From: an uncultured Spirochaetota bacterium
GTDB lineage: Bacteria > Spirochaetota > UBA4802 > UBA5550
NCBI GenBank assembly: GCA_963827275.1
Contig: CAWHAA010000004.1
Coordinates: 486,847-550,846, forward strand
DNA: 64,000 nucleotides
Reading direction: 5' to 3'
Shown: positions 2,321 through 48,886 of the stretch, piece by piece
Layout: the number at the start of each line of letters is the position of its first letter
Numbering within the stretch: position 1 is the first letter of the stretch
Notes under the pieces: generated by a model
What the model was told of the DNA's origin: nothing
Database searches by the model: none
What the model saw: only the letters and a program-made list of their open reading frames with translations
Made by a program: the position numbers and the translations under genes

Positions 2321-2347
2321 AATAAAAGACCCCGGGAGCACCCGGGG
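2321..2347 (-). terminator. rho-independent terminator downstream of the rod-protein gene
   Basis: minus strand reads CCCCGGG-tgct-CCCGGGG followed by TCTTTTATT; a copy of the TTACTCTGACCCC repeat (2344-2357) overlaps the 5' arm of the stem. Confidence 0.5.
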
Positions 2348-2373
2348 TCAGAGTAAGATTCATTTTATGATTG

Positions 2374-3274: not shown

Positions 3275-3727
3275 TTATACGATACGGGATTCGGGTAGAA
3301 TGCGTGCTATATTGGGTGGATAGCCCCAGATGAATTTCCAGTATGTGATATTATCTATCATATCTTTTATTATAACATAATTTTTATAACGATAGTTATC
3401 GGTATTAGCCTCTTTTAGAATGCTATTTAAGTATTTCGATACAGCATATGAAAGAATCAATGAAACCGACATTTTAAGCAGTTTCCTCAAATCCAGCATG
3501 TACTCATAATCATCAACCCGCAGCTGGATATGAAAAATGCGCCAGTCCTCCGGGTTGCTTCGTTCCTGGTATCTAACCATAGAGCCGAATCGTCCCGGAT
3601 CGGGAATATCATCCATAACCAGTTTTATGAGCGTAACAATTACATCCGACCGTGAAACACCCTTTAATTGTGCCGCCAGAGTGATCCTTTGTAAAGTCTC
3701 AGCATGAATATTAAGGGTTGTTTCCAT
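3275..3727 (-). CDS. hypothetical protein in AT-rich island (no recognisable motif)
   Basis: 150-aa ORF with I/K/N/Y-rich composition in a ~640-bp AT-rich segment that contrasts with the ~60% GC flanks. Confidence 0.4.
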   Translation of the reverse strand: METTLNIHAETLQRITLAAQLKGVSRSDVIVTLIKLVMDDIPDPGRFGSMVRYQERSNPEDWRIFHIQLRVDDYEYMLDLRKLLKMSVSLILSYAVSKYLNSILKEANTDNYRYKNYVIIKDMIDNITYWKFIWGYPPNIARILPESRIV

Positions 3728-5255: not shown

Positions 5256-6455
5256 TCAATTCGGGATATAGAGTATCCGACCGGTTTTGAGGGTTCGAGC
5301 GTTTTTGATCCCGTTCAGCCGCAGTATCGGGCCTGTTTTTTTATTGTAGCGACGTGCGATTTTTGAAATTGTATCGCCTTTTTTAACCCGGTGCTCGATG
5401 ACGCCGCCGAGCCCGTTTTTGTACAGGTCCTCCGCGTTTTCATCGATCTTGTCCCTGGCATCGGCGGGCACCCTGAGCCTGTATGGCTTCATGAATGGCG
5501 GGGTCTTCGCGGTGGCAAGTTCGGGATTCAGCTCCCGCAGTTTCTGTACCGGTATGCCTGAAAACCGCGCAACATCGTGGAGGTCCGCCGGGCGCCGGAG
5601 CTCAACGGTCGTTGTCGCACAGGTGTCCGGCCGAATGATATCATCCTGTATGCCGAAGAGGCGCTGGTTTTTGTAGATCAGCATGAGGGCGATGAATTTC
5701 GGGACATAGTCACCCGTCTCTTCCCTTATGAGCTTCTGCTCCGCCAGTTTCCAGTAATCAGAGACGCCGGTGCGGTTCATGGTGCGCTGCATGTATCCGG
5801 CACCGCCGTTGTAGGCGGCCAGCGCCAGGTCCCACCGGGGGAAGATTGTGCGCATCGTTCGCAGGTGCCGGAGCGCCGCCTCGGTCGATTTCTCCACGCT
5901 GCGCCGCTCGTCGATCCACCGGTCACACTTCAGCCCCAGGGGCCGGGAGGTGTTTTCCAAAAACTGCCACAGGCCGACGGCTCTGCTTACCGATACCGCA
6001 TGGGGGTTGAAGCAGCTTTCCAGGAGCGGGAGGAGCCACAGCTCCTCCGGCAGGTCGCTATTATTTTTTATGATTTCGGCGATTGCGGCCTCATAGCGGT
6101 ATGATCGGTTGATGGCGCGCAGCAGGTATTCACGCTTGGTTGTCAGGTAGAGGTAGAGATGTTTCCTGACCGCGCTGTTTCTGCAGATCGACAGGTCGCG
6201 TGAGGCCTCAAAAATGTCTCTGCCTGAAATTTCGGGAAGATAAAGGATATCGCGTCCGGGATCAAACGTGCCGGCCGTGTCCGGTCCCCCGGCGGGATGA
6301 GCCGCATCGGTGAATATATCGACGAGGCCCCAGGAGAGGAGCCTCGTGGCGGCGCCTGTTACCATCGACATTGACAGCAGGGCGATGATTATACAGCGTG
6401 ATAGGGCGGTGGTATGTTTCATCTGCATAATGGAATTTTGGATAGCTGAACGCAC
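5256..6455 (-). CDS. membrane-bound lytic murein transglycosylase D-like (SLT domain + LysM repeats)
   Basis: SLT catalytic region LLPLLESCFNPHAVSVSRAVGLWQF...AYNGGAGY; C-terminal LysM motifs (HRVKKGDTISKIARRY..., DLHDVARFSGIPVQKLRELNP); signal peptide. Confidence 0.85.
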   Translation of the reverse strand: MRSAIQNSIMQMKHTTALSRCIIIALLSMSMVTGAATRLLSWGLVDIFTDAAHPAGGPDTAGTFDPGRDILYLPEISGRDIFEASRDLSICRNSAVRKHLYLYLTTKREYLLRAINRSYRYEAAIAEIIKNNSDLPEELWLLPLLESCFNPHAVSVSRAVGLWQFLENTSRPLGLKCDRWIDERRSVEKSTEAALRHLRTMRTIFPRWDLALAAYNGGAGYMQRTMNRTGVSDYWKLAEQKLIREETGDYVPKFIALMLIYKNQRLFGIQDDIIRPDTCATTTVELRRPADLHDVARFSGIPVQKLRELNPELATAKTPPFMKPYRLRVPADARDKIDENAEDLYKNGLGGVIEHRVKKGDTISKIARRYNKKTGPILRLNGIKNARTLKTGRILYIPN

Positions 6456-6595
6456 GGAATACGTAAAAGCAAGTAAATTTTAATTTTCACCGGATCATGC
6501 CCGCTTCCGCGGTGAAGCGGGTTGAAATTTAATTATTGAAAAAAATCAATTTGATTTCTATCGTTGTCATTATTATGGAATGAAAGGGACGTGGC

Positions 6596-6862
6596 ATGAA
6601 TATCGCGGTCAAACTCCATATCAAGAATCACTGTATTGAGGCGGAGGCCCGGAAGGAGTATTCACGCCTGATGGATACCTATTTCAGCACTGACGATGTT
6701 GAGGGAGAACTTGATGAGAGGATCGTGCTGCTGAGGGATTTCCTTGAAAAAAGCGATTTCCGAAAACTGAGGTCATCGGACCAACGGCTTTCAGGGGAAC
6801 GGGAATCCGAAGTCGTGATAACAAGGAACGCCGGGGGTTCAATCAATCTCGAGGTCTATTGA
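6596..6862 (+). CDS. hypothetical small protein
   Basis: 88-aa ORF only; moderate-GC region; no motif. Confidence 0.3.
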   Translation: MNIAVKLHIKNHCIEAEARKEYSRLMDTYFSTDDVEGELDERIVLLRDFLEKSDFRKLRSSDQRLSGERESEVVITRNAGGSINLEVY

Positions 6863-7011
6863 TCGGCTGTGACGATCAACGGAGCAGCGTCTATTGCAGG
6901 CAAGGGCGGCAGTGCAGGCAAATATCGGCAGTCAATCCAATTATTCCAAAAAAGTAGTTGTAATTTTAATTGCCGTGAATGTATATTTCATATAAGTCAA
7001 GCGGTGGGGAT

Positions 7012-7893
7012 ATGGAAATGGAAAAAGTTACCATATGGTACCTTAAGGACAATGATACCGGTGCGAAGCTCTTAACTGCCATTACGGGACTCGGCCTGAC
7101 GGTCAATGTCGTCGCCGGCCACAAACTGACCCACGCCAATATCATAGAAGAAGAGATTAATATCTTCATCTATGATATCGCCTCCACTGACCCGGAACTG
7201 CTGGTGGACGAAATTACGAAAGACGAGCGCCTCCGCAGCTGCCTGAAGTTCCTGATGGTGAAGAAAAGCCAGGTCAAGGGAATTACGCGTCTGAATTACA
7301 ACCTGATGCACCTCGAGTTCCTTAACAGGCCCGTTGACAAGAGGGAATTCATGCTGCTTCTTGAAAAATCTATAATCGTCGAGCGGTATCGCGAAATAAT
7401 GAAGTTCATATCACGAGAGGCTGAGTCGAGGATCGAGGCGTATGAAGGCCTGATGGATATTAACCGCAAAAATGTGTTTGAATCTGAAAAAGAGAAAGAA
7501 GCATTTGAAAAGATACTCGACTTTGAAAAAAACCTGATACGGCAGCAGTCCAACCTGAGTACGGCCATCCGGGACTTCACGCTCCTGAGGCAGATGAACC
7601 TTTTCGATATGCGCGATCGCATCAAGGCAGAGGAGATGCTCGCCGATCTGAGGCGCAAGGAGCTGATGGACGCCCGTGATGTCATTAAGGCCCAGGAATC
7701 GGTCATAGATTATTCCGCGCGCGAGCTCGACGATGCGAAGAAAATCATCGACGCGCGCGAGAAGGTGGAAGAATTATCGCGCAGCGAGCTTATTGAGCTG
7801 CATAAGGAGATTGATCGCCAGAAGGATCTCAACAAGCAACTGGCTGAACAGGTCAACCGCCTTCTTGCAGATGTCCGGAAGGACAAGGAGTAA
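7012..7893 (+). CDS. atypical receiver-like domain protein with long C-terminal coiled coil
   Basis: ORF 6979-7893; GGTGGGGA RBS favours ATG 7012; N-terminus KVTIWYLKDNDTGAKLL...IFIYDIASTDPELLVDEI...KFLMVKKS follows the receiver-domain pattern (DD pair, phospho-acceptor D, K); remainder is E/K/R-rich heptad coiled coil. Confidence 0.5.
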   Translation: MEMEKVTIWYLKDNDTGAKLLTAITGLGLTVNVVAGHKLTHANIIEEEINIFIYDIASTDPELLVDEITKDERLRSCLKFLMVKKSQVKGITRLNYNLMHLEFLNRPVDKREFMLLLEKSIIVERYREIMKFISREAESRIEAYEGLMDINRKNVFESEKEKEAFEKILDFEKNLIRQQSNLSTAIRDFTLLRQMNLFDMRDRIKAEEMLADLRRKELMDARDVIKAQESVIDYSARELDDAKKIIDAREKVEELSRSELIELHKEIDRQKDLNKQLAEQVNRLLADVRKDKE

Positions 7894-11643: not shown

Positions 11644-13491
11644 TTGTATATGAACCAGAAGGTATTCAAGCGGCGGGTTATAATCGCCGGTCTGCTTTTT
11701 GCCGCGCTCTCCCTCGTTTTCATCGTGAGGCTTTTTAATCTTCATTTTTCAGGCAGGATCACGGTGTCGGACGGTGACGGCAACCCGGCGCGCCGCGGGA
11801 TCATCAGGGACCGCGGCGGGTACATCCTGGCCATTTCCCTTGAAAAGAACTCCCTCTTTGCCAATCCCGAGGAGATCACCAATCCGGAGGGGACCGCGCG
11901 CGCGCTGTCCGGGCCGCTGCAGCTTACGCCTGAAGCGATCCTGAAAAAAATTAAAAAGAAAAAGCGTTTTGTCTGGATCAAGCGGAAGATAGACGATGCT
12001 GCCGCGGAGCAGATCGGGAAACTGGACATGCCGGGCATCTATTTTAAAAAAGAGTACCGGCGCATGTATCCCCATGAGGAGCTCGCGGCGAACATCATCG
12101 GGTTCACGGGTATCGACAACGACGGCCTTGCCGGAATAGAATACGGCTTTGACCGTATCCTGGCGTCGCGGCCCGAGAGGGAGGCGGCCGGGCCGGGCGC
12201 GGGGAACTTCGGCGGGAACATCACCCTCACCATCGACCGGTTCATACAGCACGAGGCGGAACAGGAGATCGGACGCGCGGTCGCGCTTTACCGCGCCAAG
12301 CAGGGCGCCGTGCTGGTCATGGAAGTGAAAACCGGCCGGATACTCGCCCTTGCGAAGGCGCCGGGATTCAACCCGAACCGGTACTACGAATATTCTTCAT
12401 TCGATCTCAGAAATTTTTCCTTCATCGATTCGTTCGAGCCGGGCTCGACGCTGAAGATACTGTCCCTGGCGTCCATGCTCGAGCACAATCCCCCGGTAGC
12501 GGACCGCCGCTATGATTGCAAAGGCGCGATCGACATCGCCGACGTGCGGATCAACTGCACCGGGGTCCATGGCTCCGTCTCGATGAAGGACATCATCCGT
12601 CATTCCTGCAACGTCGGGGTCATCGAGGCGATGCGCGGCGTAAAAAAGAAAAACCTCTATGACACGCTCGCACGGTTCAGGTTCGGCCGCAAGACCGGCA
12701 TCGAGCTGCCGGGCGAATCGGAGGGAATTTTCCGTCACTGGAGCAGGTGGTCCGGGCTGTCAAAATACTCGATGGCTATAGGGCACGAAATCTCGGTGAC
12801 GTCGGTACAGCTTGCGGCCGCCTTCTGCGCGGTCGCCAACGGAGGGGTGTACATCTCTCCCTCGATCATTGAGTCGATTGAGGACGGCAACGGCACGGTG
12901 CTGAAAAAGTTCAGCCCCGCGGTCAGGGGGCGGGTCATCAGCAGGGATATCAGCAGGAAGCTGATGGCAATGATGCGGGGCGTGGTCGAGGGAGGGACCG
13001 GGCAGCGCGCCGGGTCGCTCTACTACTGCGTTGCGGGAAAGACCGGCACATCGCAGAAGTTCGTGCGGGCGCGTGGATATTCCGACCGCGTGCTCGCTTC
13101 ATTCGTCGGCATCGCGCCCTGCGAGGACCCCGAGGTGTGCATGCTCGTCATCATCGACGACCCGGCCGACAGGCTTTCTGGCGGCCAGATCGCTACCCCG
13201 GTCTTTGCAAATTTAATCGACAAGGTCCTGGTACGGCAGGGCGTGGTGAAAAAACGCCTCACACCGGCAGACCCGCTCCGCAGAGCCAATCCGAAGGTCG
13301 AATTCGACGGCGGCGCCATGCCCGATTTCAGGGGGCGGGGGCTGGCTGAATCGCTCTCCGCCCTTGTGGAGATGAAGAAACAAAATGATATCGTCTACTC
13401 GCTGCAGGGATCCGGCAAGGTGTATGCCCAGCAGCCGGCCCCCGGGGCACGGCTTGAAAAAGCGGGTGAGATAAAATTATTTCTGAAATAA
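11644..13491 (+). CDS. penicillin-binding protein (class B transpeptidase, FtsI/SpoVD-like) with C-terminal PASTA domain
   Basis: N-terminal TM anchor, dimerisation domain, SxxK (FEPGSTLK), SxN (SCN), KTG (KTGTSQK) motifs; C-terminal PASTA-like segment MPDFRGRGLAESLSALVEM...GEIKLFL. Confidence 0.9.
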   Translation: MYMNQKVFKRRVIIAGLLFAALSLVFIVRLFNLHFSGRITVSDGDGNPARRGIIRDRGGYILAISLEKNSLFANPEEITNPEGTARALSGPLQLTPEAILKKIKKKKRFVWIKRKIDDAAAEQIGKLDMPGIYFKKEYRRMYPHEELAANIIGFTGIDNDGLAGIEYGFDRILASRPEREAAGPGAGNFGGNITLTIDRFIQHEAEQEIGRAVALYRAKQGAVLVMEVKTGRILALAKAPGFNPNRYYEYSSFDLRNFSFIDSFEPGSTLKILSLASMLEHNPPVADRRYDCKGAIDIADVRINCTGVHGSVSMKDIIRHSCNVGVIEAMRGVKKKNLYDTLARFRFGRKTGIELPGESEGIFRHWSRWSGLSKYSMAIGHEISVTSVQLAAAFCAVANGGVYISPSIIESIEDGNGTVLKKFSPAVRGRVISRDISRKLMAMMRGVVEGGTGQRAGSLYYCVAGKTGTSQKFVRARGYSDRVLASFVGIAPCEDPEVCMLVIIDDPADRLSGGQIATPVFANLIDKVLVRQGVVKKRLTPADPLRRANPKVEFDGGAMPDFRGRGLAESLSALVEMKKQNDIVYSLQGSGKVYAQQPAPGARLEKAGEIKLFLK

Positions 13492-21767: not shown

Positions 21768-24488
<2,721 letters not shown>

Positions 24489-25737: not shown

Positions 25738-25790
25738 TTTACTCTGACCCCTCCCGGGGATATTGAAAAGTAGAATTTTACTCTGACCCC
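25738..25790 (+). repeat. two direct copies of TTT(T)ACTCTGACCCC
   Basis: tttACTCTGACCCC 25738-25751 and ttttACTCTGACCCC 25777-25790, 30 bp upstream of the GT4 gene. Confidence 0.75.
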
Positions 25791-25820: not shown

Positions 25821-27083
25821 ATGAAGAACGTTGGATTCATATCGACAAGAATATCTGGCACTGACGGAGTAAGCCATGAGATCGAAAAATGGGCCGCCGT
25901 GCTTGAGAAGAATGGCCTGTCCTGCTCCTATTGCGCCGGGGAAGTCGATCGGCCACGGGAACGCTGTCATGTTATCGATGAAGCCCATTTCAGGCACCCG
26001 GACATCGACACTATTAACCGGAGCGTATTTGGAAAAACAATCAGGCCGGAGAAGATAACCGACCTTATCCATGTGTTATCCGCACACTTGAAAAGCGAAC
26101 TATCAAACTATATTCGGCGTTTTGATGTCGATTGTATAATAGCCGAAAATGCGCTTGCCATTCCAATGAATATCCCTTTAGGGATAGCGTTGACAGAGCT
26201 GGTTGCAGAGACCGGTATTCCGGTTATAGCCCATCACCATGACTTTGCGTGGGAGCGTGAACGATTCCTGGTCAATGCCGCTGGTGACTACTTGCAGATG
26301 TGCTTTCCGCCTGTACTGCCCTCCGTGCTCCATGTGGTAATAAATTCGCTCGCGCGGAGGTCTCTTGCGCATCGTCGGGGCGTGACAAGCACCGTTATTC
26401 CCAATACCATTGATTACGCCAATCCACCCAAACCGGCTGATCCCGGGGCAATTAAAGGGGTCAGAGTAAATGCGGGAGTGTCCGATGGTGAAATTTTTGT
26501 TCTCCAGCCCACACGCGTGGTGCCGCGCAAATGCATTGAGCGCTCAATTGACCTTGTGAGTGGACTTGCCGGCGCGGGCAAAAGGCTTGTAATCTCACAT
26601 CCCTCCGGCGATGAGGGTGATGAGTACTATACACAATTGAAGGAATACGCGAATATGCGCCAGGTAAGTCTGGTCAGCATAGAATCGGTGGTATCGCCGG
26701 GCCGGTCGGTGTCAGAGCAACGGCCGTATACCATCGGTGAGGTATATCAGGCCGCTGATCTTGTTACATATCCTTCGGCGTATGAGGGATTCGGGAACGC
26801 CTTCCTTGAGGCAATTTATTTCAGGAAGCCAATTTTAATGAATCGCTACCCGATTTTCATAGCTGACATTGAGCCAAAAGGTTTTGAGTTATGTCTTATA
26901 AATGGGTTTGTTACCGTTGATGTGATCAGGTATGTAGAGCGAATTCTTTCAGATCCGGATGCTCGTAAGAAGATGGTAGATAAAAATTATAGTATAGCGA
27001 GCGAGTGTTTTTCTTATCAAAGGCTTGAAGATCTTTTAATGGGTGTGGTGGGCTGCCTCAGACCTCGATCTCCTTGCAGATGA
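25821..27083 (+). CDS. glycosyltransferase family 4 (GT-B, Glycos_transf_1)
   Basis: C-terminal GT4 signature ...VTYPSAYEGFGNAFLEAIYFRKPIL...; 420 aa; contains an intragenic copy of GGGGTCAGAGTAAAT at 26457-26471. Confidence 0.75.
   Translation: MKNVGFISTRISGTDGVSHEIEKWAAVLEKNGLSCSYCAGEVDRPRERCHVIDEAHFRHPDIDTINRSVFGKTIRPEKITDLIHVLSAHLKSELSNYIRRFDVDCIIAENALAIPMNIPLGIALTELVAETGIPVIAHHHDFAWERERFLVNAAGDYLQMCFPPVLPSVLHVVINSLARRSLAHRRGVTSTVIPNTIDYANPPKPADPGAIKGVRVNAGVSDGEIFVLQPTRVVPRKCIERSIDLVSGLAGAGKRLVISHPSGDEGDEYYTQLKEYANMRQVSLVSIESVVSPGRSVSEQRPYTIGEVYQAADLVTYPSAYEGFGNAFLEAIYFRKPILMNRYPIFIADIEPKGFELCLINGFVTVDVIRYVERILSDPDARKKMVDKNYSIASECFSYQRLEDLLMGVVGCLRPRSPCR
26457..26471 (-). repeat. intragenic copy of the repeat core (GGGGTCAGAGTAAAT)
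   Basis: exact 15-mer shared with 34591-34605; encodes K-G-V-R-V-N in the GT4 gene. Confidence 0.7.
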
Positions 27084-27771
27084 TCATTTCCGAGTCTTCT
27101 TCCTCCGGTCGAACTCGGTAGAGTATGCCATTTCTATCTGCTATTAAACTACGCGCTTGCAAGAAATTGCGAAATTCAGATTTGACACCGCAAACCTTGA
27201 CGATGACCGCATTCGCCATCGCTGCACCCCGGACATAAATATCAAGATCACGCTTGAATTTTTCATCCGCAGATTCCTCTCTCCTTGGTGAAAAAGTAGG
27301 GGCAAATATTAGGTGAGTTCCCTGCTCGCGCATGAAATGAAAAGCATCGTCTTCAAATACATCGGCGCAGATAATCACTCCAAAAGTAATTCCATGTGCA
27401 CTGAATACCTGATATAAGTCTCCTGGTGTTATCTTGCCCACTTCAGCAAAAAAGAGTCGTTTTTTACGATAACTACCCAATAGGATGCCATTATGAAACA
27501 CAAAACAGGTATTGTAAGTTACCCCATTTGCAAGTTCTGGCATTGTCCCACCGATAACAACGGTTGACAGTTCCTTGGATAATTTTGATATTCGCTGCAA
27601 TTGACGTTTTTGGTTGTGGGGCGTTTGGTTCTGTGTGCCCAGAGCAGTGTTTACGAAAAAATATTCGGGGAAACATATAAAGTGTGGCTTGAAACTTCGA
27701 AACAGGCTGGTGTCAGAGTGAGTTATAGGGACTCCAAGCGGTTTTTGAGATATTATAATTCGAAGTTTCAT
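27058..27771 (-). CDS. carbon-nitrogen hydrolase family protein (nitrilase/amidase superfamily)
   Basis: ORF 27058-27786, probable start MKLRIIISQ; catalytic Cys context GVIICADVFED; low-GC; 3' end overlaps the convergent GT4 gene by ~26 nt. Confidence 0.7.
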   Translation of the reverse strand: MKLRIIISQKPLGVPITHSDTSLFRSFKPHFICFPEYFFVNTALGTQNQTPHNQKRQLQRISKLSKELSTVVIGGTMPELANGVTYNTCFVFHNGILLGSYRKKRLFFAEVGKITPGDLYQVFSAHGITFGVIICADVFEDDAFHFMREQGTHLIFAPTFSPRREESADEKFKRDLDIYVRGAAMANAVIVKVCGVKSEFRNFLQARSLIADRNGILYRVRPEEEDSEMIICKEIEV

Positions 27772-27839
27772 GACTACGTTTCCCATGCAACTAGTAATCT
27801 TTTATTTAATAATATCAAGAGATTTTAGTGTCAGAGTAA
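27712..27839 (-). repeat. two copies of the repeat core (GTCAGAGT / GTCAGAGTAA) downstream of the transposase gene
   Basis: GTCAGAGTg at 27712-27719 and GTCAGAGTAA at 27830-27839. Confidence 0.5.
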
Positions 27840-28602: not shown

Positions 28603-28685
28603 GGCGTCCTCCTTTGCTTGTGGGATGTCTTGCTTGCGTTTGCTGTATATACGAATGGGAGGCCGCCTTCTGGTAATAATTTTAT

Positions 28686-28700
28686 GGGGTCAGAGTAAAA
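28686..28700 (-). repeat. copy of repeat core (GGGGTCAGAGTAAAA) just upstream of the RAYT gene
   Basis: exact core match. Confidence 0.6.
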
Positions 28701-33878: not shown

Positions 33879-33967
33879 GCTCTGACACCTCGTTTTCAGA
33901 ATATTTTACTCTGACCCCGGTTTCCCATTTTCAATTTACTCTGACACCAAATATTTACTCTGACCCC
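33879..33967 (+). repeat. tandem array of four ACTCTGAC(C/A)CC repeat cores
   Basis: gCTCTGACACC 33879-33889; ttttACTCTGACCCC 33904-33918; tttACTCTGACACC 33935-33948; tttACTCTGACCCC 33954-33967; lies between icmF and the convergent sulfatase gene (last copy overlaps its 3' end). Confidence 0.75.
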
Positions 33968-35892
33968 AGGCCTTTCCTTCGTGGCGGTTCAGATGTAGGC
34001 CAGAGTCTGTTTGAATTCAGTATTTTCTGATTAATGTAAATATCCATGAGCCTTTTTCGCAGACGCTTCATCACTGCGGGCTTCCCTCTCCCGGCAAGAT
34101 TGTGCTCCTCCCGGGGATCGGTCGTGAGGTTAAAGAGATATTCTTTGCCGGTTTCGGAATGATGAATGTATTTCAATGGATATTCCACAATGCCAAGGAA
34201 CAGGCCATTATACGGTTGTATCAAGTATACCGGTCCTGTTTTTACGCCAGGTGACACCAAAGATTGCCCGAGAAAATGCGTTTTCACGCCTGATATGCCC
34301 GCAATGTCGAGTATGGTGGGTGCGATATCGAGCTGGGAATAGGCCTCGTTGAGGATGCGTGGCCCAATTCTGCTGTTCCATAGTATCAGCAGGGGGGTCC
34401 GGAAGACCTCATCGTAGAACCCGACTTCATTGTGCGAGATTCCATGTTCATTAATTGGAAAACTGTGATCGCCGGTGATAATTACAGCTGTGTTGGCGTG
34501 TTGCGGTCGTTTGGCTATTCCTTTCAACAGGTCTCGAAGACCCTGATCGGATAAATGGATGGAATTGGCGTAGCGCTGATCGATCGTAGTGGGGTCAGAG
34601 TAAATCAAACACTTATCTTTCGGTACGTAATCGAACCACATATGGTTCGATGTCGTTGCCAGGAGAGCGAAGACCGGCCTGCCGCCGTTCCGCTGCCTGA
34701 TGCGTTCCATCTGGCGGAGGCATAGTTTATAGAAGAGGCCGTCCTCGGGGCCCCAGCCCCATACCTGCGGGGCGTCCGCATCAGTCAAAAATTCGTAGGC
34801 GGAATGGATATGCCGGAAGCCGGCCTTTTTCATAAAGGCCCTGGTGTTATCGAAATCGAGCTCGCGGGCGGCCTGCATGAACAGTGTGTCATATCCGGCA
34901 TCGTGCAGTAGCTCCGGGAGCGCCCTGAAGGAAAGCTCGGGGAATGACGTGAAGATTTTTCCGCGAATGCTCGGTAGCACGGACAGCAAGACCGCGGCCT
35001 GTCCCTTGCATGTCTGGACGGAATTGCCGTAGAAGCGCTCGACGTAGAGGCCGCGGGGGATGAGTGAATTGAATACCGGCGTTATCTCCTTTCCCTCCGG
35101 GGACTTCTTCCTGACTACATTGGCGTTATATGATTCAACCATTACCAGGACAATATCCGGCCTGGATGATCCCCTCGGAAGGGCCGGCGACGCGTTGAAT
35201 GTTGTCAGGTACGGGTATCCGCTAACGCTGATGCCGGCCATGGGGTCCTGGAAGGGATAGCGGAGGATTCCCCGCAGGAGGCCGGTGAATTCATCATGGG
35301 TCTTGACCGGCAGCAGCAGTATCACCGCATAGAGCAGAGCGGCCACGACTGTTTTTTTCGCCGCATGCGGGTATTCTGGCGGGGATACCAGAATTTTTTT
35401 CCGCCAGTGAAGCATGAGCAGGAGTACGAGAGATATCCCGATTATGATGAAGAACCAACGGGGAAAAATTCCGATGATGGTGTACCAGGATTCCTTGTAA
35501 AAGCCGAGGGTGAAATTATCGATAATGATGGAACAGTTGAGCGGGATGTGTGTTATGAGATAGTAGGTGTGTATCATTGTAAACAGCGTTAAAAAGAGCA
35601 TGTTGATGACAAGCCGTACCGCCCGCACCCTGCTGGCCGCAAGGTTGATAAGCTGGACCGCGACAGTGGCCGTGAATATGCTGTAACAGATATACAGTGC
35701 CGATGTTATGGAGAGATCGAAAGGCCGTATGCCGTAACGCCGCTGGAATCCGTATAAAAAAAATATCATGAGGATGACTGTCAGGGTATTCATGCAGCCA
35801 AGATCCAGGGGGAGCCACTCACGTACCAGCTCGCGATATCTGCGGGCTCTCTTTGTGATTATGTCTAACGTGGTGGTATCGCTCCTTGTCAT
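33955..35892 (-). CDS. LTA-synthase/sulfatase family membrane protein (alkaline-phosphatase superfamily)
   Basis: 5 N-terminal TM helices; extracytoplasmic sulfatase domain (DIVLVMVESYNAN..., ITGDHSFPINEHG); contains intragenic repeat copy 34591-34605. Confidence 0.8.
   Translation of the reverse strand: MTRSDTTTLDIITKRARRYRELVREWLPLDLGCMNTLTVILMIFFLYGFQRRYGIRPFDLSITSALYICYSIFTATVAVQLINLAASRVRAVRLVINMLFLTLFTMIHTYYLITHIPLNCSIIIDNFTLGFYKESWYTIIGIFPRWFFIIIGISLVLLLMLHWRKKILVSPPEYPHAAKKTVVAALLYAVILLLPVKTHDEFTGLLRGILRYPFQDPMAGISVSGYPYLTTFNASPALPRGSSRPDIVLVMVESYNANVVRKKSPEGKEITPVFNSLIPRGLYVERFYGNSVQTCKGQAAVLLSVLPSIRGKIFTSFPELSFRALPELLHDAGYDTLFMQAARELDFDNTRAFMKKAGFRHIHSAYEFLTDADAPQVWGWGPEDGLFYKLCLRQMERIRQRNGGRPVFALLATTSNHMWFDYVPKDKCLIYSDPTTIDQRYANSIHLSDQGLRDLLKGIAKRPQHANTAVIITGDHSFPINEHGISHNEVGFYDEVFRTPLLILWNSRIGPRILNEAYSQLDIAPTILDIAGISGVKTHFLGQSLVSPGVKTGPVYLIQPYNGLFLGIVEYPLKYIHHSETGKEYLFNLTTDPREEHNLAGRGKPAVMKRLRKRLMDIYINQKILNSNRLWPTSEPPRRKGLGSE
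34591..34605 (-). repeat. intragenic copy of the repeat core (GGGGTCAGAGTAAAT)
   Basis: identical 15-mer to 26457-26471; encodes L-I-Y-S-D-P on the sulfatase coding strand. Confidence 0.7.
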
Positions 35893-42869: not shown

Positions 42870-43298
42870 ATGTCAATAACCCAGGTCTCAATCGCGGTTG
42901 ACAACGCACCCGGCAGCCTCTACCGGGCGAGCTCGATCCTCGAGAAAGAGCAGATAAACATTAAGGCCATCATGGCGGCCACTGATCTGAGCCCCGTGCA
43001 GGTGCATATGGTCGTTGACGATCCGGACAGGGCGGTGAAAGTGCTGGAGATGAACCGTTTCACGGTTACCACCAAAGAGGTCATCGCCGTGGCCGCTCCC
43101 GATCATCCCGGCGGGCTCAACGCCATCCTCAGGCCGCTCATCGAGGCGAAGGTCAACATCGACGCCATGTATCCCTTTATCTATCTCAAGGGCGATGAGG
43201 CGGTCCTGATCCTTGATGTTGATAAGATAAAGGAAGCCAGGGAGGTGCTGAAAAAGCACTGGGTGAAGACTTACGGCGGCGAGATATACAAGTCATAG
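42870..43298 (+). CDS. tandem ACT-domain protein
   Basis: two beta-alpha-beta-beta-alpha-beta ACT-like units (VSIAVDNAPGSLYRASSIL...; IAVAAPDHPGGLNAILRPL...). Confidence 0.75.
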   Translation: MSITQVSIAVDNAPGSLYRASSILEKEQINIKAIMAATDLSPVQVHMVVDDPDRAVKVLEMNRFTVTTKEVIAVAAPDHPGGLNAILRPLIEAKVNIDAMYPFIYLKGDEAVLILDVDKIKEAREVLKKHWVKTYGGEIYKS

Positions 43299-43307
43299 GG
43301 CGGGTTG

Positions 43308-43439
43308 CCGATAGTTATCGGTACTGTTTAAGTATTAATTTACTCTGACCCTGCGACGTCACACATTAATTCCGATAGTTATCGGTAATAAAGTTACTCT
43401 GACCCCGCAATCACATGCAAGAATCCCGATAGTTATCGG
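43308..43439 (+). repeat. composite repeat array: 3 x CCGATAGTTATCGG(TA) palindrome interleaved with 2 x TT(T)ACTCTGACCC(C)
   Basis: palindromes at 43308-43321, 43372-43385, 43426-43439; cores at 43339-43351, 43394-43406; spacer 43407-43425 (gcaatcacatgcaag...) recurs at 48698-48715. Confidence 0.8.
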
Positions 43440-43499
43440 TAAAAAGGCAGAAAACGCTGGTTCTATCTTCCCGGTCTGTCCCGCTCCACCGACCGCAAT

Positions 43500-45350
43500 T
43501 CAGCGTATTATTTCGTTTCTGTTCCGCAGGGATTCAATCTCTCGGTTGATCATGGCCTTGATTTCCCGGTCCTTTCCCCCGCGCATGTATCCGAGCATCT
43601 CGATGATGTTCCTGGCGGACAGGACCCGCGGGACAAACACGTAATCGGCCCCTTCCGCGTACATCTTCAGGGCCCGCTCTATGCTCTCGGCGGTAACGAT
43701 TATTTTCGCCTCCGGGCAGATTTCTTTCATATGCCTGATGATCCTCAGGTTATCGGTCCCAACGAGTATCGTGTCAGGTATGGTTGATATGACGATTTTC
43801 GCGTCATGGATGCCCGCGTGATGCAATGTGTCAGGGTGGCTGATGTCCCCGTACACGACCTTGATCCCCATGCTCTGGAGTGACTCGTGTATCTCCGGAT
43901 TGAAATCCACGACTATTATCTTGTTCTTCAGCGGGATCCCGTCTGCGTCGTTGCCGGTTTCAATTATATCATGCAGCAGGGAGCTTGCGGTGCGGAAGAA
44001 TCCGAGTATGGCGATCTCCCTGCTGTGTGCCGCTCCATCCTTCTCTTCCGCGGATTTGATCTCCCTGAATCCGATTTTTTTCAGCAGGGACGCCCCGCCT
44101 TTCTGGATGGCGTCGCTGTATTTAATCATGTAGGTCGATACGATCGAGGTGATGACGAAGACGAATATTATTATCGACATCGTGTCGCGTGAAATATGGC
44201 CGGCCGTCACGCCGAGGGCGGCGATGACCAGCGAGAATTCGCTGATCTGGGCGAGGTTGATGGGCGTCAGGAGGCTTACGCGAAGGCCGTTTTTCAATGA
44301 ATAGAGTACGGGGAAGACGGCCAGGAACCGGGACGCTATTAAAAACAGCGATACAACCGCGGCCGTTGCGAGTATCGCGGTATTATCGAGCGGGTTGGGT
44401 ATCTGCATGCCCAGCGACACGAAAAAGAGCGTGACGAAAAAATCCCTGATATTGACCACCTTCGCAATAACGTCGAGGTTGTAGGGAAAGGTTGATATCG
44501 AAACGCCCGCGATCAGCGCCCCCATTTCGAGGGAGAGGTTCAGGAAATTCGCCGCGCCGCAGACCAGGAAGCACCATCCAAGCGAGGAAACAAGCACAAG
44601 CTCCGGGACCTTTGCGACCGACTTGAATACCCGGGGTAATATATATTTGCTGATCAGCATGCTGACTGCGACGAGGAGCAATCCCCTGCCGAAGGAGAGC
44701 AGAATCTGGACAATGTCGGGGTTTGCCAGGTTCGGCTGTATGCCCAGAAGAAGTATTGCCCAGAGGTCCTGGAACACGAGGATCCCCAGCGTAAGCCTGC
44801 CGGCCAGCGTGTCCAGCTCGAATTTTCCATACAGAAGCTTGACGACTATCGCGGTACTGCTGAGGCCGCAGCACGTGGCCAGGTAAAGGAGGTCATAGGT
44901 GCCCGTGCCCAGAGTGTAACCCATCAGGAGGAAAAATCCAATGCCGAGGGCCAGCGTTAAAGGGAATTGGGTGAGTCCACCGATGATGAGTGATTTTCCC
45001 GATTCTTTCAGCTTCTTAATGTCTATCTCGAGTCCGATCAGGAAAAGGAGCAGTATGAGGCCGAAATGGGATATTGTTTCGATGTCATGAGCGTTCTGTA
45101 TGAGCCCCAACCCCATGGCGGGCCCGATCACTATTCCGGCTGCCAGGTATGCCAGGAGGAGCGGCTGCTTGAGAAGGTGGCCGAGGTACGCCATGACAGT
45201 AGCCGCAAGTATTGCTATGCCGACGCCGCTGATCATGGTGTCGCCCCTGCCGCCCTCCGATTCGGCTGCGGTCAGTGATGCAGCCAGGGTCAGTAGCATT
45301 ATTATTGTATATAAAAGGCAATAACGGATCGGTTCTGATGTTGTCCTCAT
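43500..45350 (-). CDS. monovalent cation:proton antiporter-2 (CPA2, Kef-type) with C-terminal TrkA-N/TrkA-C regulatory domains
   Basis: 12-13 TM Na_H_Exchanger-like core; Rossmann-like gate IIVVDFNPEIHESL... Confidence 0.85.
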   Translation of the reverse strand: MRTTSEPIRYCLLYTIIMLLTLAASLTAAESEGGRGDTMISGVGIAILAATVMAYLGHLLKQPLLLAYLAAGIVIGPAMGLGLIQNAHDIETISHFGLILLLFLIGLEIDIKKLKESGKSLIIGGLTQFPLTLALGIGFFLLMGYTLGTGTYDLLYLATCCGLSSTAIVVKLLYGKFELDTLAGRLTLGILVFQDLWAILLLGIQPNLANPDIVQILLSFGRGLLLVAVSMLISKYILPRVFKSVAKVPELVLVSSLGWCFLVCGAANFLNLSLEMGALIAGVSISTFPYNLDVIAKVVNIRDFFVTLFFVSLGMQIPNPLDNTAILATAAVVSLFLIASRFLAVFPVLYSLKNGLRVSLLTPINLAQISEFSLVIAALGVTAGHISRDTMSIIIFVFVITSIVSTYMIKYSDAIQKGGASLLKKIGFREIKSAEEKDGAAHSREIAILGFFRTASSLLHDIIETGNDADGIPLKNKIIVVDFNPEIHESLQSMGIKVVYGDISHPDTLHHAGIHDAKIVISTIPDTILVGTDNLRIIRHMKEICPEAKIIVTAESIERALKMYAEGADYVFVPRVLSARNIIEMLGYMRGGKDREIKAMINREIESLRNRNEIIR

Positions 45351-45359
45351 GGTGCCTCC

Positions 45360-45770
45360 TCAATGCAGGTTCGGGTTTTCTTTTTGCTTCATCAGAAATG
45401 ACTTGAATCGTTCAGATTGCACTATGGCCCTGCAGGTAAAGAGCGAAATGGTAAAGGCCAGGTAGAAATACCCGAAAAAAACCTGTGTTGCTGCGATGAT
45501 CTTGCCGCCCATGGTCGCCGGTATTATATCACCGTATCCCACGGTCGTCTGGGATGTTATGCTGAAGTAAAAATGGTCCAGGTAGGAGGTCGTGTGGCTT
45601 AGTGCCGGCTCGCAGGTGTTGTATTTCAGCGATGGGGCCCCCTCAAAAAAGGGGAGCATCAGGTAATAGCAGAGTGAATAGATCACCGCTGTGCCGAGAT
45701 ACAAACAGATTACCAGGTATGTGCTCCGGGGATTATTGATGATATTCCACGCATTGATCTTCATGGTCAT
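45360..45770 (-). CDS. two-TM potassium channel (pore-loop, TVGYGD selectivity filter)
   Basis: FYFSITSQTTVGYGDIIPAT selectivity-filter signature between two TM helices; 136 aa; low GC. Confidence 0.75.
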   Translation of the reverse strand: MTMKINAWNIINNPRSTYLVICLYLGTAVIYSLCYYLMLPFFEGAPSLKYNTCEPALSHTTSYLDHFYFSITSQTTVGYGDIIPATMGGKIIAATQVFFGYFYLAFTISLFTCRAIVQSERFKSFLMKQKENPNLH

Positions 45771-45990
45771 GCTTCCTGTTTTGTGGATTGTTTTCTATAG
45801 TATCTATCGTCAGGCGGTGAAAAGTGATTAATATACAAAAATAAAATAATAGACATTAATGTCCTGATATATTAATTTGTTTGTATGGCTTCCTTGTGTT
45901 AATGAGGAAGGCCATCTTGTCGCAATGTTCTCTTGGTTTTTCATGCAGCCGGTTCAGGTAATGATTAAAATCAATTACAAAGGAGCAAGC

Positions 45991-46857
45991 ATGCTGCTGC
46001 CTCCGCGAAGAATCCTGCTCGCAACAGACCTGAGCGCTCGAAGCGATCGGGCACAGGACCGGGCCGTATCGCTCATGAAGATGTGGAATTCCGAGCTTGT
46101 GGCCCTCCATGTCCTGGAGGCGCCGAATGAAATCGGCGGAATCGCCCACATCCCTTTTTTCCCCTATCACAGGCCCAATGACCGGCGCATATTTAAGGCG
46201 CGGAATCAATTGCTTGAATCCATTGGCGATATCGGTCCGCGCATAACCGTGCGCATCGAGGAAGGCGTGCCGCATGAGGCTATCATCCGGATTTCAGAGG
46301 AGGAGGGGTGTGATCTCATCGTCTGCGGCGTCGCGCGCAACGAGGTCCTCGGGCGCTTCACGCTGGGGAAAACGGCCGATCGTCTCATGCGCAAATCGGA
46401 CAGGTCTATGCTGGTGGTGACCGAGCGTGTTCTGGCGCCCTACCGGAAAATCGTGGCAATAACCGACTTGTCGGAAGAATCGAAAAGGGCGATCGAGGTC
46501 GCTTCGAACTGGTTTCCCGAGCAGATGCTATCGGTATTGTACGCGTATTCCGCTCCCCGCTCGTCCTCGGTTGATAATATCGACGACTATCGAGAAAAGA
46601 TGCGTCAGGTGGCGCAGCGCGATCTCATAAAATTTCTTGATTCGGCTGACGTGGCCGTTGAACGGCGCGCGCGCATCACTATGCTGGTCGAATTCGGGAA
46701 GGCAACAACCCTCATCAATGGCCTGCTTCAATTTTCCGATGTGGGGCTGGTTGTCGCGGGTCTGCACAGACGCGGTTTTTTATTCGATGCCGTTTTCGAC
46801 AGTGAGGCAAAGCGCATCATATCCTCCCTTTCCTGTGATGCCTTGATCGTCCGATGA
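45991..46857 (+). CDS. universal stress protein (tandem UspA domains)
   Basis: ORF from 45877; RBS AAAGGAG before ATG 45991; two Usp-like halves (ILLATDLSARSD... and KIVAITDLSEES...). Confidence 0.75.
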   Translation: MLLPPRRILLATDLSARSDRAQDRAVSLMKMWNSELVALHVLEAPNEIGGIAHIPFFPYHRPNDRRIFKARNQLLESIGDIGPRITVRIEEGVPHEAIIRISEEEGCDLIVCGVARNEVLGRFTLGKTADRLMRKSDRSMLVVTERVLAPYRKIVAITDLSEESKRAIEVASNWFPEQMLSVLYAYSAPRSSSVDNIDDYREKMRQVAQRDLIKFLDSADVAVERRARITMLVEFGKATTLINGLLQFSDVGLVVAGLHRRGFLFDAVFDSEAKRIISSLSCDALIVR

Positions 46858-46983
46858 AACTGCATGTGGAGTGCTGCTATACGGCCCATGCGTGGGTCTG
46901 TGCGCCAGCTGCCGATTGTAACGGTCGTCGGTCCAGGAAGCAATAATACGTTTTGCCTTTTTGCTGTCACGGATATAATCGGA

Positions 46984-48678
46984 ATGACTATGAACGAATA
47001 CAATGTATTGATGACATTCGTCGGAAGCCTGGCGGCCGCACTGGTTCTCGGATATTTGGCCCAGTGGCTGAAAATATCACCCATCGTCGGCTACCTCCTG
47101 GCCGGCATAGCCGTTGGCCCGTTTACTCCCGGCTTCACGGCACAGCAGGCGATTGCCCATCAGTTCGCGGAAATCGGCGTGATCCTTCTGCTTTTCGGCA
47201 TAGGGCTGAGGTTCCATCTCCGCGAGCTGGCCGCCGTATGGCGGATCGCGGTGCCGGGCGCAATAATCCAGAGCGCTTTTTCAACTGCGGTGATGGCGGG
47301 CTTGTTGCACCTGCTTGGCTGGAGCTGGAGCTCCGGGGTCGTCCTCGGCCTCGCGATTTCTGTCGCGAGCACTGTCGTCATGGCCCTTGTGCTTGCGGAG
47401 CGGCACGACCTGCACGCGCCCATAGGACACATCGCCATTGGGTGGACGGTCGTTGAGGACATCCTCACCGTTGCATACCTTCTTCTCCTTCCGATTGTTT
47501 TTTCCGGCGATGGCGCTGGCGGCAGGGAGGCGGGATGGGCGCTCGCGATAACCGCGCTAAAAATTATCGGTTTGGCCGGCTCTGTTGTTGTCCTCGGCCG
47601 CTGGGTTATTCCATGGGCGCTGGAACGAATAGCGGTTACCCGTTCGCGTGAATTGTTTACTCTGTCAGTCCTGGTCATTGCCATGGGCATTGCTGTCGGG
47701 TCCTCGAAACTTTTCGGTGTTTCCATGGCCCTAGGGGCTTTTCTTGCGGGACTCGCGGTCGGCCGATCGGAATTCGCCGCCCGGGCCGGCGGTGATGCCC
47801 TGCCGATGCGCGACGCTTTCGCCGTGCTCTTCTTTGTTTCCATCGGTATGATGTTTGATCCCCGAAGTCTCGTAAACGAGGCGTTGGTCATTGTCGTTGT
47901 TCTATCGGTAGTGCTCGTCGGCAAGCCGCTTTCCACCTTGCTTACGGTACGCATCCTTGGCAGACCGCTGTCAACAGCAATTCCCGTCGGCGCGGCCCTT
48001 TCGCAGGTGGGGGAATTCAGCTTCATTCTCGGGGTCGTCGCCAGGGATCTCAACCTGTTGAGTGAAGCCGGCTGGAATGCAATGATAGCCGCGTCAATTA
48101 TATCAATTGCTCTTAATCCATCAATTTACCGGTTTGCGCGGCGTATCTCTTCACGGGCGGCAAAAAGCGTGCCTCCCGCCGGTGAGCGGCCGGCGGTCGA
48201 TCCCCGGAAGTGCATTCTGGTCGGCTACGGGCCGGTCGGCAAAACCGTGCACCGCCTCCTGGCCGAACGCGGCGCGGTACTAACGGTAATAGAATTGAAT
48301 CTTGATACGGTCCGCCGCCTGAAGGCCGAAGGATGCAATGCTCTCTATGGCGACGTATTAAGACAGGGGACGCTGGAAGAGGCGGGCATAGCCGAGTCAG
48401 GAAGTCTCATTATTTCAGCCGATGTCGATGATGCGGCGGAGATCGTCAGACGGGCGTGCATTCTGAACAAGGACCTGCGTATTCTCGTGCGGTGCGCGCA
48501 TCTCCGCGATGTCCCGGCTATCCGGAAAGCGGGGGCGACGGTTGTGGCTGCGGGTGAAGTTGAAGTGGCGGTTGCGCTTGCCGAAGCGGTTATCGAGGAG
48601 CATGGTTTGGATAACGGTGTTATGGCCGTGCGGCGTAAGGACATTCGCAGGGGCCTGTATGAGCCCTCTTCTGACTGA
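46984..48678 (+). CDS. CPA2 cation:proton antiporter (KefB/KefC-like) with C-terminal TrkA-N (KTN) domain
   Basis: ORF from 46864, likely start MTMNEYNV; 12-13 TM; KTN NAD-binding KCILVGYGPVGKTVHRLLAERG. Confidence 0.85.
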   Translation: MTMNEYNVLMTFVGSLAAALVLGYLAQWLKISPIVGYLLAGIAVGPFTPGFTAQQAIAHQFAEIGVILLLFGIGLRFHLRELAAVWRIAVPGAIIQSAFSTAVMAGLLHLLGWSWSSGVVLGLAISVASTVVMALVLAERHDLHAPIGHIAIGWTVVEDILTVAYLLLLPIVFSGDGAGGREAGWALAITALKIIGLAGSVVVLGRWVIPWALERIAVTRSRELFTLSVLVIAMGIAVGSSKLFGVSMALGAFLAGLAVGRSEFAARAGGDALPMRDAFAVLFFVSIGMMFDPRSLVNEALVIVVVLSVVLVGKPLSTLLTVRILGRPLSTAIPVGAALSQVGEFSFILGVVARDLNLLSEAGWNAMIAASIISIALNPSIYRFARRISSRAAKSVPPAGERPAVDPRKCILVGYGPVGKTVHRLLAERGAVLTVIELNLDTVRRLKAEGCNALYGDVLRQGTLEEAGIAESGSLIISADVDDAAEIVRRACILNKDLRILVRCAHLRDVPAIRKAGATVVAAGEVEVAVALAEAVIEEHGLDNGVMAVRRKDIRRGLYEPSSD

Positions 48679-48682
48679 TTAT

Positions 48683-48729
48683 TTACTCTGACTCCCGCAA
48701 TCACCTGCAATGATACCGATAGTTATCGG
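48683..48729 (+). repeat. composite repeat unit TTTACTCTGACTCCC-N18-CCGATAGTTATCGG
   Basis: 5 nt after the antiporter stop; near-identical to the unit at 43394-43439. Confidence 0.75.
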
Positions 48730-48886
48730 TAAGAAAAGCAGCAGTACTGTCATAAACCTGATTGTTTCGAATAAAATGTCGGTTATTTGGGACAGTTATA
48801 AAATACTTCTTGAAAATTCACCTTATACGCTGACCATCACCCCTGTCATTAAGAATCCATCAGACGGCCACGGCCGCGGAGAAAGC

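Follow-up and report, generated by a model that had tools for sequence, protein, structure and literature searches.

A two-motif extragenic repeat family of uncultured Spirochaetota, one motif of which is probably cognate to a RAYT-type transposase

The array at positions 43308-43441 of a 64-kb stretch of DNA from an uncultured Spirochaetota bacterium (the window) is built of two sharply bounded, alternating motifs, termed here the A-box and the B-box. The two motifs form an extragenic repeat family that is confined to an uncultured Spirochaetota lineage. The array is probably one locus of a genome-wide family of the repetitive extragenic palindrome/bacterial interspersed mosaic element (REP/BIME) type, in which the A-box is cognate to a REP-associated tyrosine transposase (RAYT), the B-box is an independent module, and the insertion of a K+ homeostasis module next to the array was anchored on the motifs. 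The original prediction, made from the letters of the window, had called the array REP/BIME-like with a distinct architecture, and this description holds, as the window encodes a RAYT that is flanked by the A-box and the flanking motif co-varies with the protein. Its choice of the palindrome as the key element does not, because the A-box 13-mer is both the RAYT-linked motif and the more abundant one.

The A-box (TTACTCTGACCCC) is a linear motif of 13 nt, and the B-box (TACCGATAACTATCGG) is an oriented near-palindrome of 16 nt with seven copies in the window. Position-frequency tables drawn from the window pooled with 38 loci from public genomes (342 kb in total, with 117 A-box and ~91 B-box copies) give the consensus tTT[A/g]CTCTGAC[C/a]CC for the A-box and (T)ACCGATAACTATCGG(t) for the B-box, both surrounded by random flanks. 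The B-box centre is AC/GT in 91/93 copies of the pooled set and its 5' TA is conserved (A in 95%, T in 62%), whereas only 45% have the matching 3' T; given the fixed centre and the conserved 5' TA, the B-box is not a free-centre palindrome. As single-stranded DNA, the B-box with its TA flanks (16-18 nt long) can adopt a stem of 7 bp closed by a 4-nt loop (-4.8 kcal/mol), so that it may act as a hairpin. The A-box is unstructured as single-stranded DNA (0 kcal/mol), and a hidden hairpin formed together with its flanks was rejected, since pairing is no greater than in shuffled controls. An Rfam search gave no match for the whole window at the gathering threshold or for the array by E-value, and a tRNA/tmRNA search of the window found none.

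Both motifs are far more frequent in the window than expected. The palindrome CCGATAGTTATCGG(TA) is exact at 43308, 43372 and 43426, with the spacings of 64 and 54 bp that had been described, and again at 48716. With up to two mismatches on both strands, it has 12 matches compared with 0.41 expected, a number that 0/100 shuffles reached. The two 13-mer cores noticed earlier within the array, TTACTCTGACCC(C/T), are in place at 43340 and 43394, and TTACTCTGACTCC follows at 48683. With up to two mismatches, the A-box 13-mer has 18 matches compared with 0.9 expected, about 15 of which are good copies (Table 1). This is many more A-boxes than the original prediction had listed, and in only five of the window copies does the palindrome follow. 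A centre-flipped palindrome had been reported twice near 21791-21846; the copy at 21833-21846 is exact, whereas that at 21790-21803 has one mismatch, and a further copy with one mismatch lies at 3389.

The family extends well beyond the window. A scan for the composite pattern A-N(5-35)-B over 185,579 species-representative genomes found 38 loci, all from ~10 species-level metagenome-assembled genomes (MAGs) of uncultured Spirochaetota/'Leptospirales' and nowhere else, and a viral-contig scan for the composite gave 0 matches. On a rough map of open reading frames (ORFs) in the pooled set, ~88% of A-box and B-box copies are intergenic, in DNA of which ORFs take up 87%. A literature search found no published description of either motif, and a text search for the motif strings returned the A-box only in unrelated primers and the B-box nowhere in the library covered.

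Arrays alternate A-boxes and B-boxes with free spacers of variable length, mostly 6-30 nt with a peak at 6-9 nt, and compact arrays with 6-9-nt spacers have a period of ~42-43 bp. The orientation of the A-box relative to the B-box differs between arrays (60 versus 53). Complete A-spacer-B and B-A-B units are found repeatedly within a genome, and whole units are common to different contigs of one genome (L016/L031 and L025/L026), which indicates that units larger than the bare motifs get copied. Several genomes also contain a larger composite, A-B-46 nt-B-A, in which all motifs are direct. Its centre of 43-46 nt is AT-rich, fixed in length and variable in sequence, with TGTTT just before the second B-box, and could be a promoter, a small gene or the interval of a protein-spaced site pair.

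Two functions unrelated to transposition can be weighed against this distribution. An RNA-level role as elements of the 3' untranslated region (UTR) has been proposed for many REPs, and the motifs might likewise stabilize mRNA, serve as processing sites or aid termination. Nine of the ten A-box loci in the window are sense to the upstream or containing gene, often 5-20 nt from the stop codon, and one A-box overlaps a terminator-like hairpin. This sense bias does not extend to the pooled data, where tandem intergenic regions have 21 sense and 15 antisense cases with no significant orientation bias, and a transcription-orientation rule was consequently rejected. Motifs are also found in divergent promoter regions, the B-box hairpin is weak, and B-boxes occur in both orientations relative to the A-box. 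The array has no Rfam match, and no terminator-like structure is present within arrays, which also removes them as candidate intrinsic terminators. A role in RNA is therefore very improbable. Still further down the scale, a competence protein might read the A-box as a DNA-uptake-type signal. A 13-mer conserved across species at ~1 per 4 kb is comparable in density to known DNA uptake and uptake signal sequences (DUS/USS), but the A-box is almost exclusively extragenic, stands in tandem direct arrays, and flanks and co-varies with the RAYT gene, and no link to competence was found; this reading has next to no likelihood.

The transposase itself is a Y1/HUH protein. The ORF at 28003-28602 matches Pfam Y1_Tnp (PF01797, E = 3e-10), and of the NCBIfam models it fits NF047646, that of the REP-associated tyrosine transposase, best (E = 2e-20, model positions 2-145 of 146). 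The best PDB sequence match to a profile of 21 RAYT homologues is 4ER8, the Escherichia coli TnpA_REP, and the alignment places NHFHF opposite EHMHC and YIAYNPV opposite YIYINPV, the HUH and Y-x-x-NPV motifs, respectively. An AlphaFold (AF2) model with a predicted local distance difference test (pLDDT) score of 90 has 4ER8_A as its top Foldseek match, with a template modelling (TM) score of 0.76 on the target, followed by the IS200, ISDra2 and IS608 transposases. The protein collection holds 149 homologues, and the sources that name an organism give Spirochaetota; a few are labelled RayT by the Joint Genome Institute (JGI). The gene is seen once per locus examined, and a RAYT-family hidden Markov model found no second Y1 paralogue in ~420 kb. 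In L029, a locus from another species, the RAYT-CN_hydrolase neighbourhood is syntenic with that of the window.

Strong evidence, drawn from sequence comparison, indicates that the A-box is a RAYT-cognate, REP-like sequence. A-boxes flank the RAYT gene, on the gene's strand, in the window and in three other loci. The L008 homologue (66% identical) has A-boxes in the order <A, A> upstream and A>, <A downstream. The L050 homologue (62% identity) lies in a different neighbourhood, where one exact A-box precedes it by 68 nt and two A-boxes follow it. In L029, an A-box lies downstream at the place equivalent to 27827-27839 of the window, beside the same neighbouring gene. Homologues at 54-60% identity carry variants of the A-box in their flanks, TTACTCTGAGCAA in L052, TTACTCTGAGT in L054 and GGCTCTGAGCC in L056; the first includes inverted pairs and the third is palindromic. 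In each of these three loci the flank variant is also the commonest 10-mer of the 20-kb locus and is present kilobases from the gene. The assignment of the A-box to RAYT thus follows from the occupation of both flanks in three non-syntenic contexts and from co-variation, compared with the presence of A-boxes in only ~18% of the window's intergenic regions.

At 12613-12784, L056 (GCA_942491575.1) has its A variant GCTCTGAGC in six tandem copies, with a 34-bp period and 2 kb from the RAYT homologue. Tandem arrays are therefore also a trait of the palindromic A variant.

The upstream A-box may have a regulatory function as well. At 28686-28698 it precedes a conserved -10-like box (CGTATATA) by ~34 nt; the A-box ends ~32-34 nt upstream of the RAYT -10-like box and is followed by a T-run, an arrangement that suggests that the RAYT promoter is under A-box control. 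The -10-like box, CGTATAT(A/C), is found upstream of every RAYT homologue examined (window 28640-28698; L008 1910-1960; L050 9921-9975).

A constant distance of ~34 nt between the A-box and the RAYT -10-like box is also compatible with another view, in which both motifs are sites of host DNA-binding proteins (nucleoid factors, insulators or regulators), retained because selection acts on the organization of the chromosome or of transcription, and RAYT is a mere neighbour or is autoregulated through the A-box. The motifs are exact across species while spacers are free and local GC across the repeat loci ranges from 45 to 66%, the period of compact arrays corresponds to roughly four helical turns, and the B-46-B spacing is fixed in several genomes. 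What speaks for a REP-RAYT system instead is its signature, an A-box on both sides of RAYT in non-syntenic contexts that co-varies with the protein. In addition, strong gain and loss between species and changes in unit copy number between strains fit selfish or semi-selfish repeats. Host-protein sites are thus an unlikely explanation for the system as a whole, although the B-box alone may be such a site.

Arrays differ between strains and species by the gain and loss of whole units, and motifs stay exact while spacers drift. L029 is syntenic with 19.4-28.1 kb of the window at 74-84% nucleotide identity. In its orthologue of the compact array at 21768-21846, the B, A and B motifs are letter-perfect and the spacers have diverged, and the A-A pair at 25739-25790 has no counterpart in the orthologous L029 spacer. 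At the 43.3-kb array, which is preceded by an ACT-domain gene (42870-43298, plus strand), L039 encodes an ACT protein identical to that of the window and lacks exactly one 54-bp unit. Hypermutation of spacers was considered and set aside; a simpler account is that units were differentially lost or gained from longer ancestral arrays of the kind found in L058, L066 and L068. Three independent short-read contigs (L040, L041 and L044) stop inside this array, at about window position 43354, just before the second B-box; either the repeats cause assemblies to break or the samples are heterogeneous at the site.

The K+ module is derived and strain-specific, having been inserted into an array that already existed between the ACT gene and a BcrAD/BadFG ATPase gene. 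In the window, the module is followed on its 3' side by an A-spacer-B unit and then by the BcrAD gene. Two contigs of the same species (L043 and L045), with flanks ~97% identical to those of the window, lack the 5.2-kb module and have the order ACT - B - A - 19-nt spacer - B, continuing with window sequence from 48732 onward. Empty and filled alleles share their sequence up to the A-box on the left and from the B-box on the right. A metagenome scan with the ACT protein recovered 50 loci. In eight of these, the next gene is BcrAD, then FGGY where the locus reaches that far, and no Kef is found there; the eight comprise seven with ACT at 82-92% identity and L105, which holds only the ACT C terminus. 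In L070 (ACT at 82%), BcrAD comes only after ~2 kb of other sequence without A-boxes or B-boxes (5766-7750). It is the adjacency of ACT and BcrAD in relatives that marks the K+ module as the derived state. The ACT-BcrAD spacer contains A/B arrays in several relatives and none in others, and the GC content of the module is slightly lower than that of its flanks. Unrelated genes follow ACT in L060 (from 534 onward), L062 and L064. More generally, the intergenic site after ACT is a hot spot at which gene content changes.

The original prediction had proposed that nearly exact copies of one unit bracket the module and may mark it as a mobile or recombination-defined cassette. Variable presence of the module is confirmed by the two same-species contigs, and with the allelic junction inside an A-spacer-B unit and ACT-BcrAD as the ancestral order, the suggestion that it may be a recombination-defined cassette stands. 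The copies themselves are less alike than had been thought, with only ~88% identity and one indel between the left unit (43394-43441) and the right unit (48683-48731). Mobility of the module itself is not supported either. Kef homologues in other contexts (L046-L049 and L108/L109) belong to similar K+ modules of other lineages that have no A-boxes or B-boxes at their ends, so that the module is not generally tied to the repeats. One of these, L046 5189-11857, contains Kup, Kef, Usp and Kef but not the small K+ channel; it is 71-78% identical at the nucleotide level and its context is unrelated, which makes the Kef-Usp-Kef cluster an older functional unit. Exact-protein look-ups with the window Kef, the K+ channel, P0001 and P0004 returned no record.

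The structure of these alleles also invites comparison with integron attC and Acinetobacter pdif sites, where a gene block that varies between strains is bracketed by short repeated sites. If the arrays were dedicated cassette-exchange sites of this kind, the mobile cassette would consist of the K+ module and one unit, and RAYT or another enzyme would be the recombinase. Directly repeated A-spacer-B-TA units stand on both sides of the module, the alleles differ exactly between A-box and B-box, and the left unit of L039 is only one base away from the right unit of the window, like a duplicated site. The near-invariant, asymmetric 2-bp centre of the B-box would suit a serine-recombinase crossover, and the content of the ACT-BcrAD spacer also differs in L070 (an additional 2 kb) and in L060, L062 and L064 (other genes). 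Nevertheless, only one such cassette has been seen, its flanking units are non-identical and the empty-site spacer is unrelated to them, and homologous modules elsewhere lack the boxes. Most arrays are tandem units whose 6-9-nt spacers are too short for cassettes, and the sites are scattered genome-wide rather than gathered in one array at the side of an integrase. No integrase or serine-recombinase domain was found by Pfam in the 40 of 52 window ORFs scanned (on the rough ORF map), and the sites have no Xer-type architecture. Dedicated cassette exchange is accordingly rather unlikely.

Several observations weigh against a REP/BIME-type family with a RAYT-cognate A-box. The RAYT score of 73.2 bits is below the NF047646 equivalog cut-off of 80; as it falls just short, the protein is a divergent member. 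The A-box fails the structural definition of a REP, being non-palindromic and pairing with its flanks no more than shuffled sequence does. Adjacent A-A pairs within arrays are 16 direct versus 3 inverted and adjacent B-B pairs 16 direct versus 4 inverted, unlike the alternating or inverted copies of BIMEs and REPINs, and no REPIN doublets are present. No B-box adjoins any RAYT gene examined, and neither a B variant nor a B-like palindrome was seen in the three diverged RAYT loci. The B-box is consequently linked to RAYT only by its association with the A-box. When the ORFs of the 38 repeat loci were clustered all against all in search of a partner of the B-box, no recurring neighbour gene emerged. 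At the K+ module, the spacer of the empty site (L043/L045) is unrelated to either flanking unit, and therefore no single simple event explains the alleles.

A mechanism consistent with a RAYT-cognate A-box would begin with RAYT binding or cutting the A-box on single-stranded DNA. Its activity would copy A-containing units to new intergenic sites and keep the motif uniform. The B-box could be a small hairpin needed by the system or the site of a separate dimeric protein; other candidates are the hairpin of a split REP and a second REP-like family. Because motifs hold one orientation within an array, arrays would grow and shrink by duplication or loss of units. Such short identical motifs would make arrays recombination hot spots, and the K+ module most likely entered by recombination on the 13- and 16-bp identities rather than through dedicated cassette machinery. 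A more elaborate and rather improbable variant is that a classical REP has split into a linear 13-nt tag (the A-box) and a mini-hairpin (the B-box), with A...B pairs as exchange points for RAYT or for a partner protein that recognizes the B-box. DNA between an A-box and a B-box would then be swappable between arrays, which would make the K+ module the first cargo seen of a RAYT-linked system for gene capture.

Among known systems, the closest relatives are REP/BIME-RAYT, as exemplified by E. coli TnpA_REP/YafM (4ER8) and Pseudomonas REPIN-RAYT. Shared features are short, high-copy extragenic motifs in mosaic arrays, with two motif types as in BIMEs; a Y1/HUH RAYT found once per locus, syntenic in two species and flanked by its cognate motif; a motif that co-varies with the RAYT lineage; and arrays that coincide with rearrangement junctions. 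Copies flank RAYT in the case of the A-box and not of the B-box, the palindromic motif, which is separate here. Unlike REPs, which are imperfect palindromes of 20-40 nt, neither motif reaches this size and form, the A-box having no stem-loop, and the logos have no GTAG or CGTC head, the head of the B-box being TA. Classical REPs turn over quickly, whereas the A-box is identical across many species. The system is thus REP/BIME-RAYT-like, but its RAYT-linked motif is non-palindromic and its palindrome is not RAYT-linked.

Other systems resemble single components. IS200/IS605 elements (the IS608 and ISDra2 TnpA proteins) have the same Y1/HUH fold, and the motifs on both sides of the gene, on the same strand, recall their left and right ends (LE/RE). 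The A-box opens with TTAC, the target and cleavage tetranucleotide of IS608. In contrast to these elements, no subterminal hairpins lie next to the gene, tnpB is absent, the gene occurs once per locus with a neighbour conserved between the window and L029, and the motif is dispersed over very many intergenic sites (hundreds, by extrapolation) rather than confined to element ends. A CRISPR array combines a single 28-37-nt repeat with unique spacers of about that length and with cas genes; here there are two repeats (13 and 16 nt), spacers are mostly 6-30 nt, and no cas domains were found in the ORFs scanned. The B-box resembles GTAG and CGTC palindromic repeats (PMC3733652) in being a short, abundant, extragenic stem-loop with a one-sided conserved head (TA) and, as for CGTC repeats, no dedicated transposase has been identified. 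It differs from them in the TA head, in a stem of only 6-7 bp and in always being interleaved with a non-palindromic motif. Of these repeats, only CGTC repeats are listed for Spirochaetes (PMC3733652), and abundant flanking 16-mers are described only for RAYT groups 2 and 3, with Spirochaetes unmentioned (PMC5581495). RAYT-linked abundant repeats in Spirochaetota are not reported in either survey (PMC3733652, PMC5581495).

A RAYT homologue tied to a non-palindromic 13-mer widens the range of RAYT recognition, and the system is a natural test of whether RAYT needs hairpin substrates. To our knowledge, work on REP-RAYT systems has been almost entirely confined to Proteobacteria, in which the repeat forms a hairpin. 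The K+ module provides a concrete case in which arrays coincide with the strain-level gain of an adaptive K+/H+ homeostasis block, which is relevant to how repeats shape the pangenomes of uncultured bacteria. Such repeats may also break metagenome assemblies.

Table 1. Positions of the repeats, the transposase gene and the K+ module (window coordinates unless a locus is named)
Feature	Position	Strand	Remarks
RAYT-type Y1/HUH transposase gene, 199 aa	28003-28602	-	HUH = NHFHFLI; Tyr motif YMAYNPVK
A-box upstream of RAYT	28686-28698	-	84 nt from start codon, on the gene's strand
Degenerate A-box (TTACTCTGACACT)	27827-27839	-	164 nt past RAYT stop, on the gene's strand
B-box copy 1, CCGATAGTTATCGGTA on plus strand = TACCGATAACTATCGG on minus strand	43308-43323	-	10 nt past ACT gene stop
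A-box variant TTACTCTGACCCT	43340-43352	+	
B-box copy 2	43372-43387	-	
A-box TTACTCTGACCCC	43394-43406	+	Opens left A-spacer-B unit (43394-43441) flanking K+ module
B-box copy 3	43426-43441	-	Left boundary of inserted segment
Strain-variable K+ homeostasis module	43442-48682		Absent from L043/L045 and from ACT-BcrAD spacer of related species
Kef-like antiporter	43500-45350	-	
K+ channel	45360-45770	-	
Tandem Usp	45877-46857	+	
Second Kef-like antiporter	46864-48678	+	
A-box variant TTACTCTGACTCC	48683-48695	+	Opens right A-spacer-B unit
B-box copy 4	48716-48731	-	Sequence from 48732 on common to empty-site alleles
Compact array	21768-21846	+	A (21768-21780), B' (21788-21803, TATCGATAACTATCGG), A' (21811-21823), B (21831-21846)
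A-A pair	25739-25790	+	25739-25751 and 25778-25790; between FecR-domain gene and glycosyltransferase gene
Three tandem A-boxes	33906-33967	+	Starting at 33906, 33936 and 33955; after methylmalonyl-CoA mutase fusion gene
Solo A-box	2344-2356	-	18 nt past flagellar rod gene stop
Solo B-box	3389-3403	-	One mismatch
A-box in glycosyltransferase ORF	26457-26469	-	Antisense, inter-domain linker
A-box in sulfatase domain ORF	34591-34603	-	Sense
A-B-[46 nt]-B-A composite	L008 6628-6784; L010 6719-6850; L027 4812-4993, 1448-1597; L024 483-700		
Third motif (~GTCGGGATTTCGGCATCCRTGCCTCAATC)	L021 625-690; L024 609-675, 3901-3962		
10-mer CGGCAGGGCG sites	1965, 5119, 10280, 13234, 13603, 61316, 61343		

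Elsewhere in the window, copies differ in arrangement and setting. In the compact array at 21768-21846, the orientation of the B-box relative to the A-box is opposite to that in the 43.3-kb array. The GACCCC of the solo A-box at 2344-2356 overlaps a terminator-like, GC-rich hairpin of 9 bp followed by TTTTATT (GACCCCGGGtgctCCCGGGGTCtttt; 2330-2356, minus strand), the 3' half of this A-box being part of the terminator-like structure.

Two other candidates were discarded as repeats. A weaker A-box match at 27709-27721 belongs to the CN-hydrolase gene, where it forms a conserved coding segment, and is no repeat copy. The 10-mer CGGCAGGGCG has seven copies where 0.34 are expected, mostly in coding sequence; as the copies share no common flanks, the enrichment is probably compositional. 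In the MAG JTS-AC436, a third intergenic motif with hairpin potential and a consensus of approximately GTCGGGATTTCGGCATCCRTGCCTCAATC lies between A-boxes and B-boxes, pointing to further mosaic components in such genomes.

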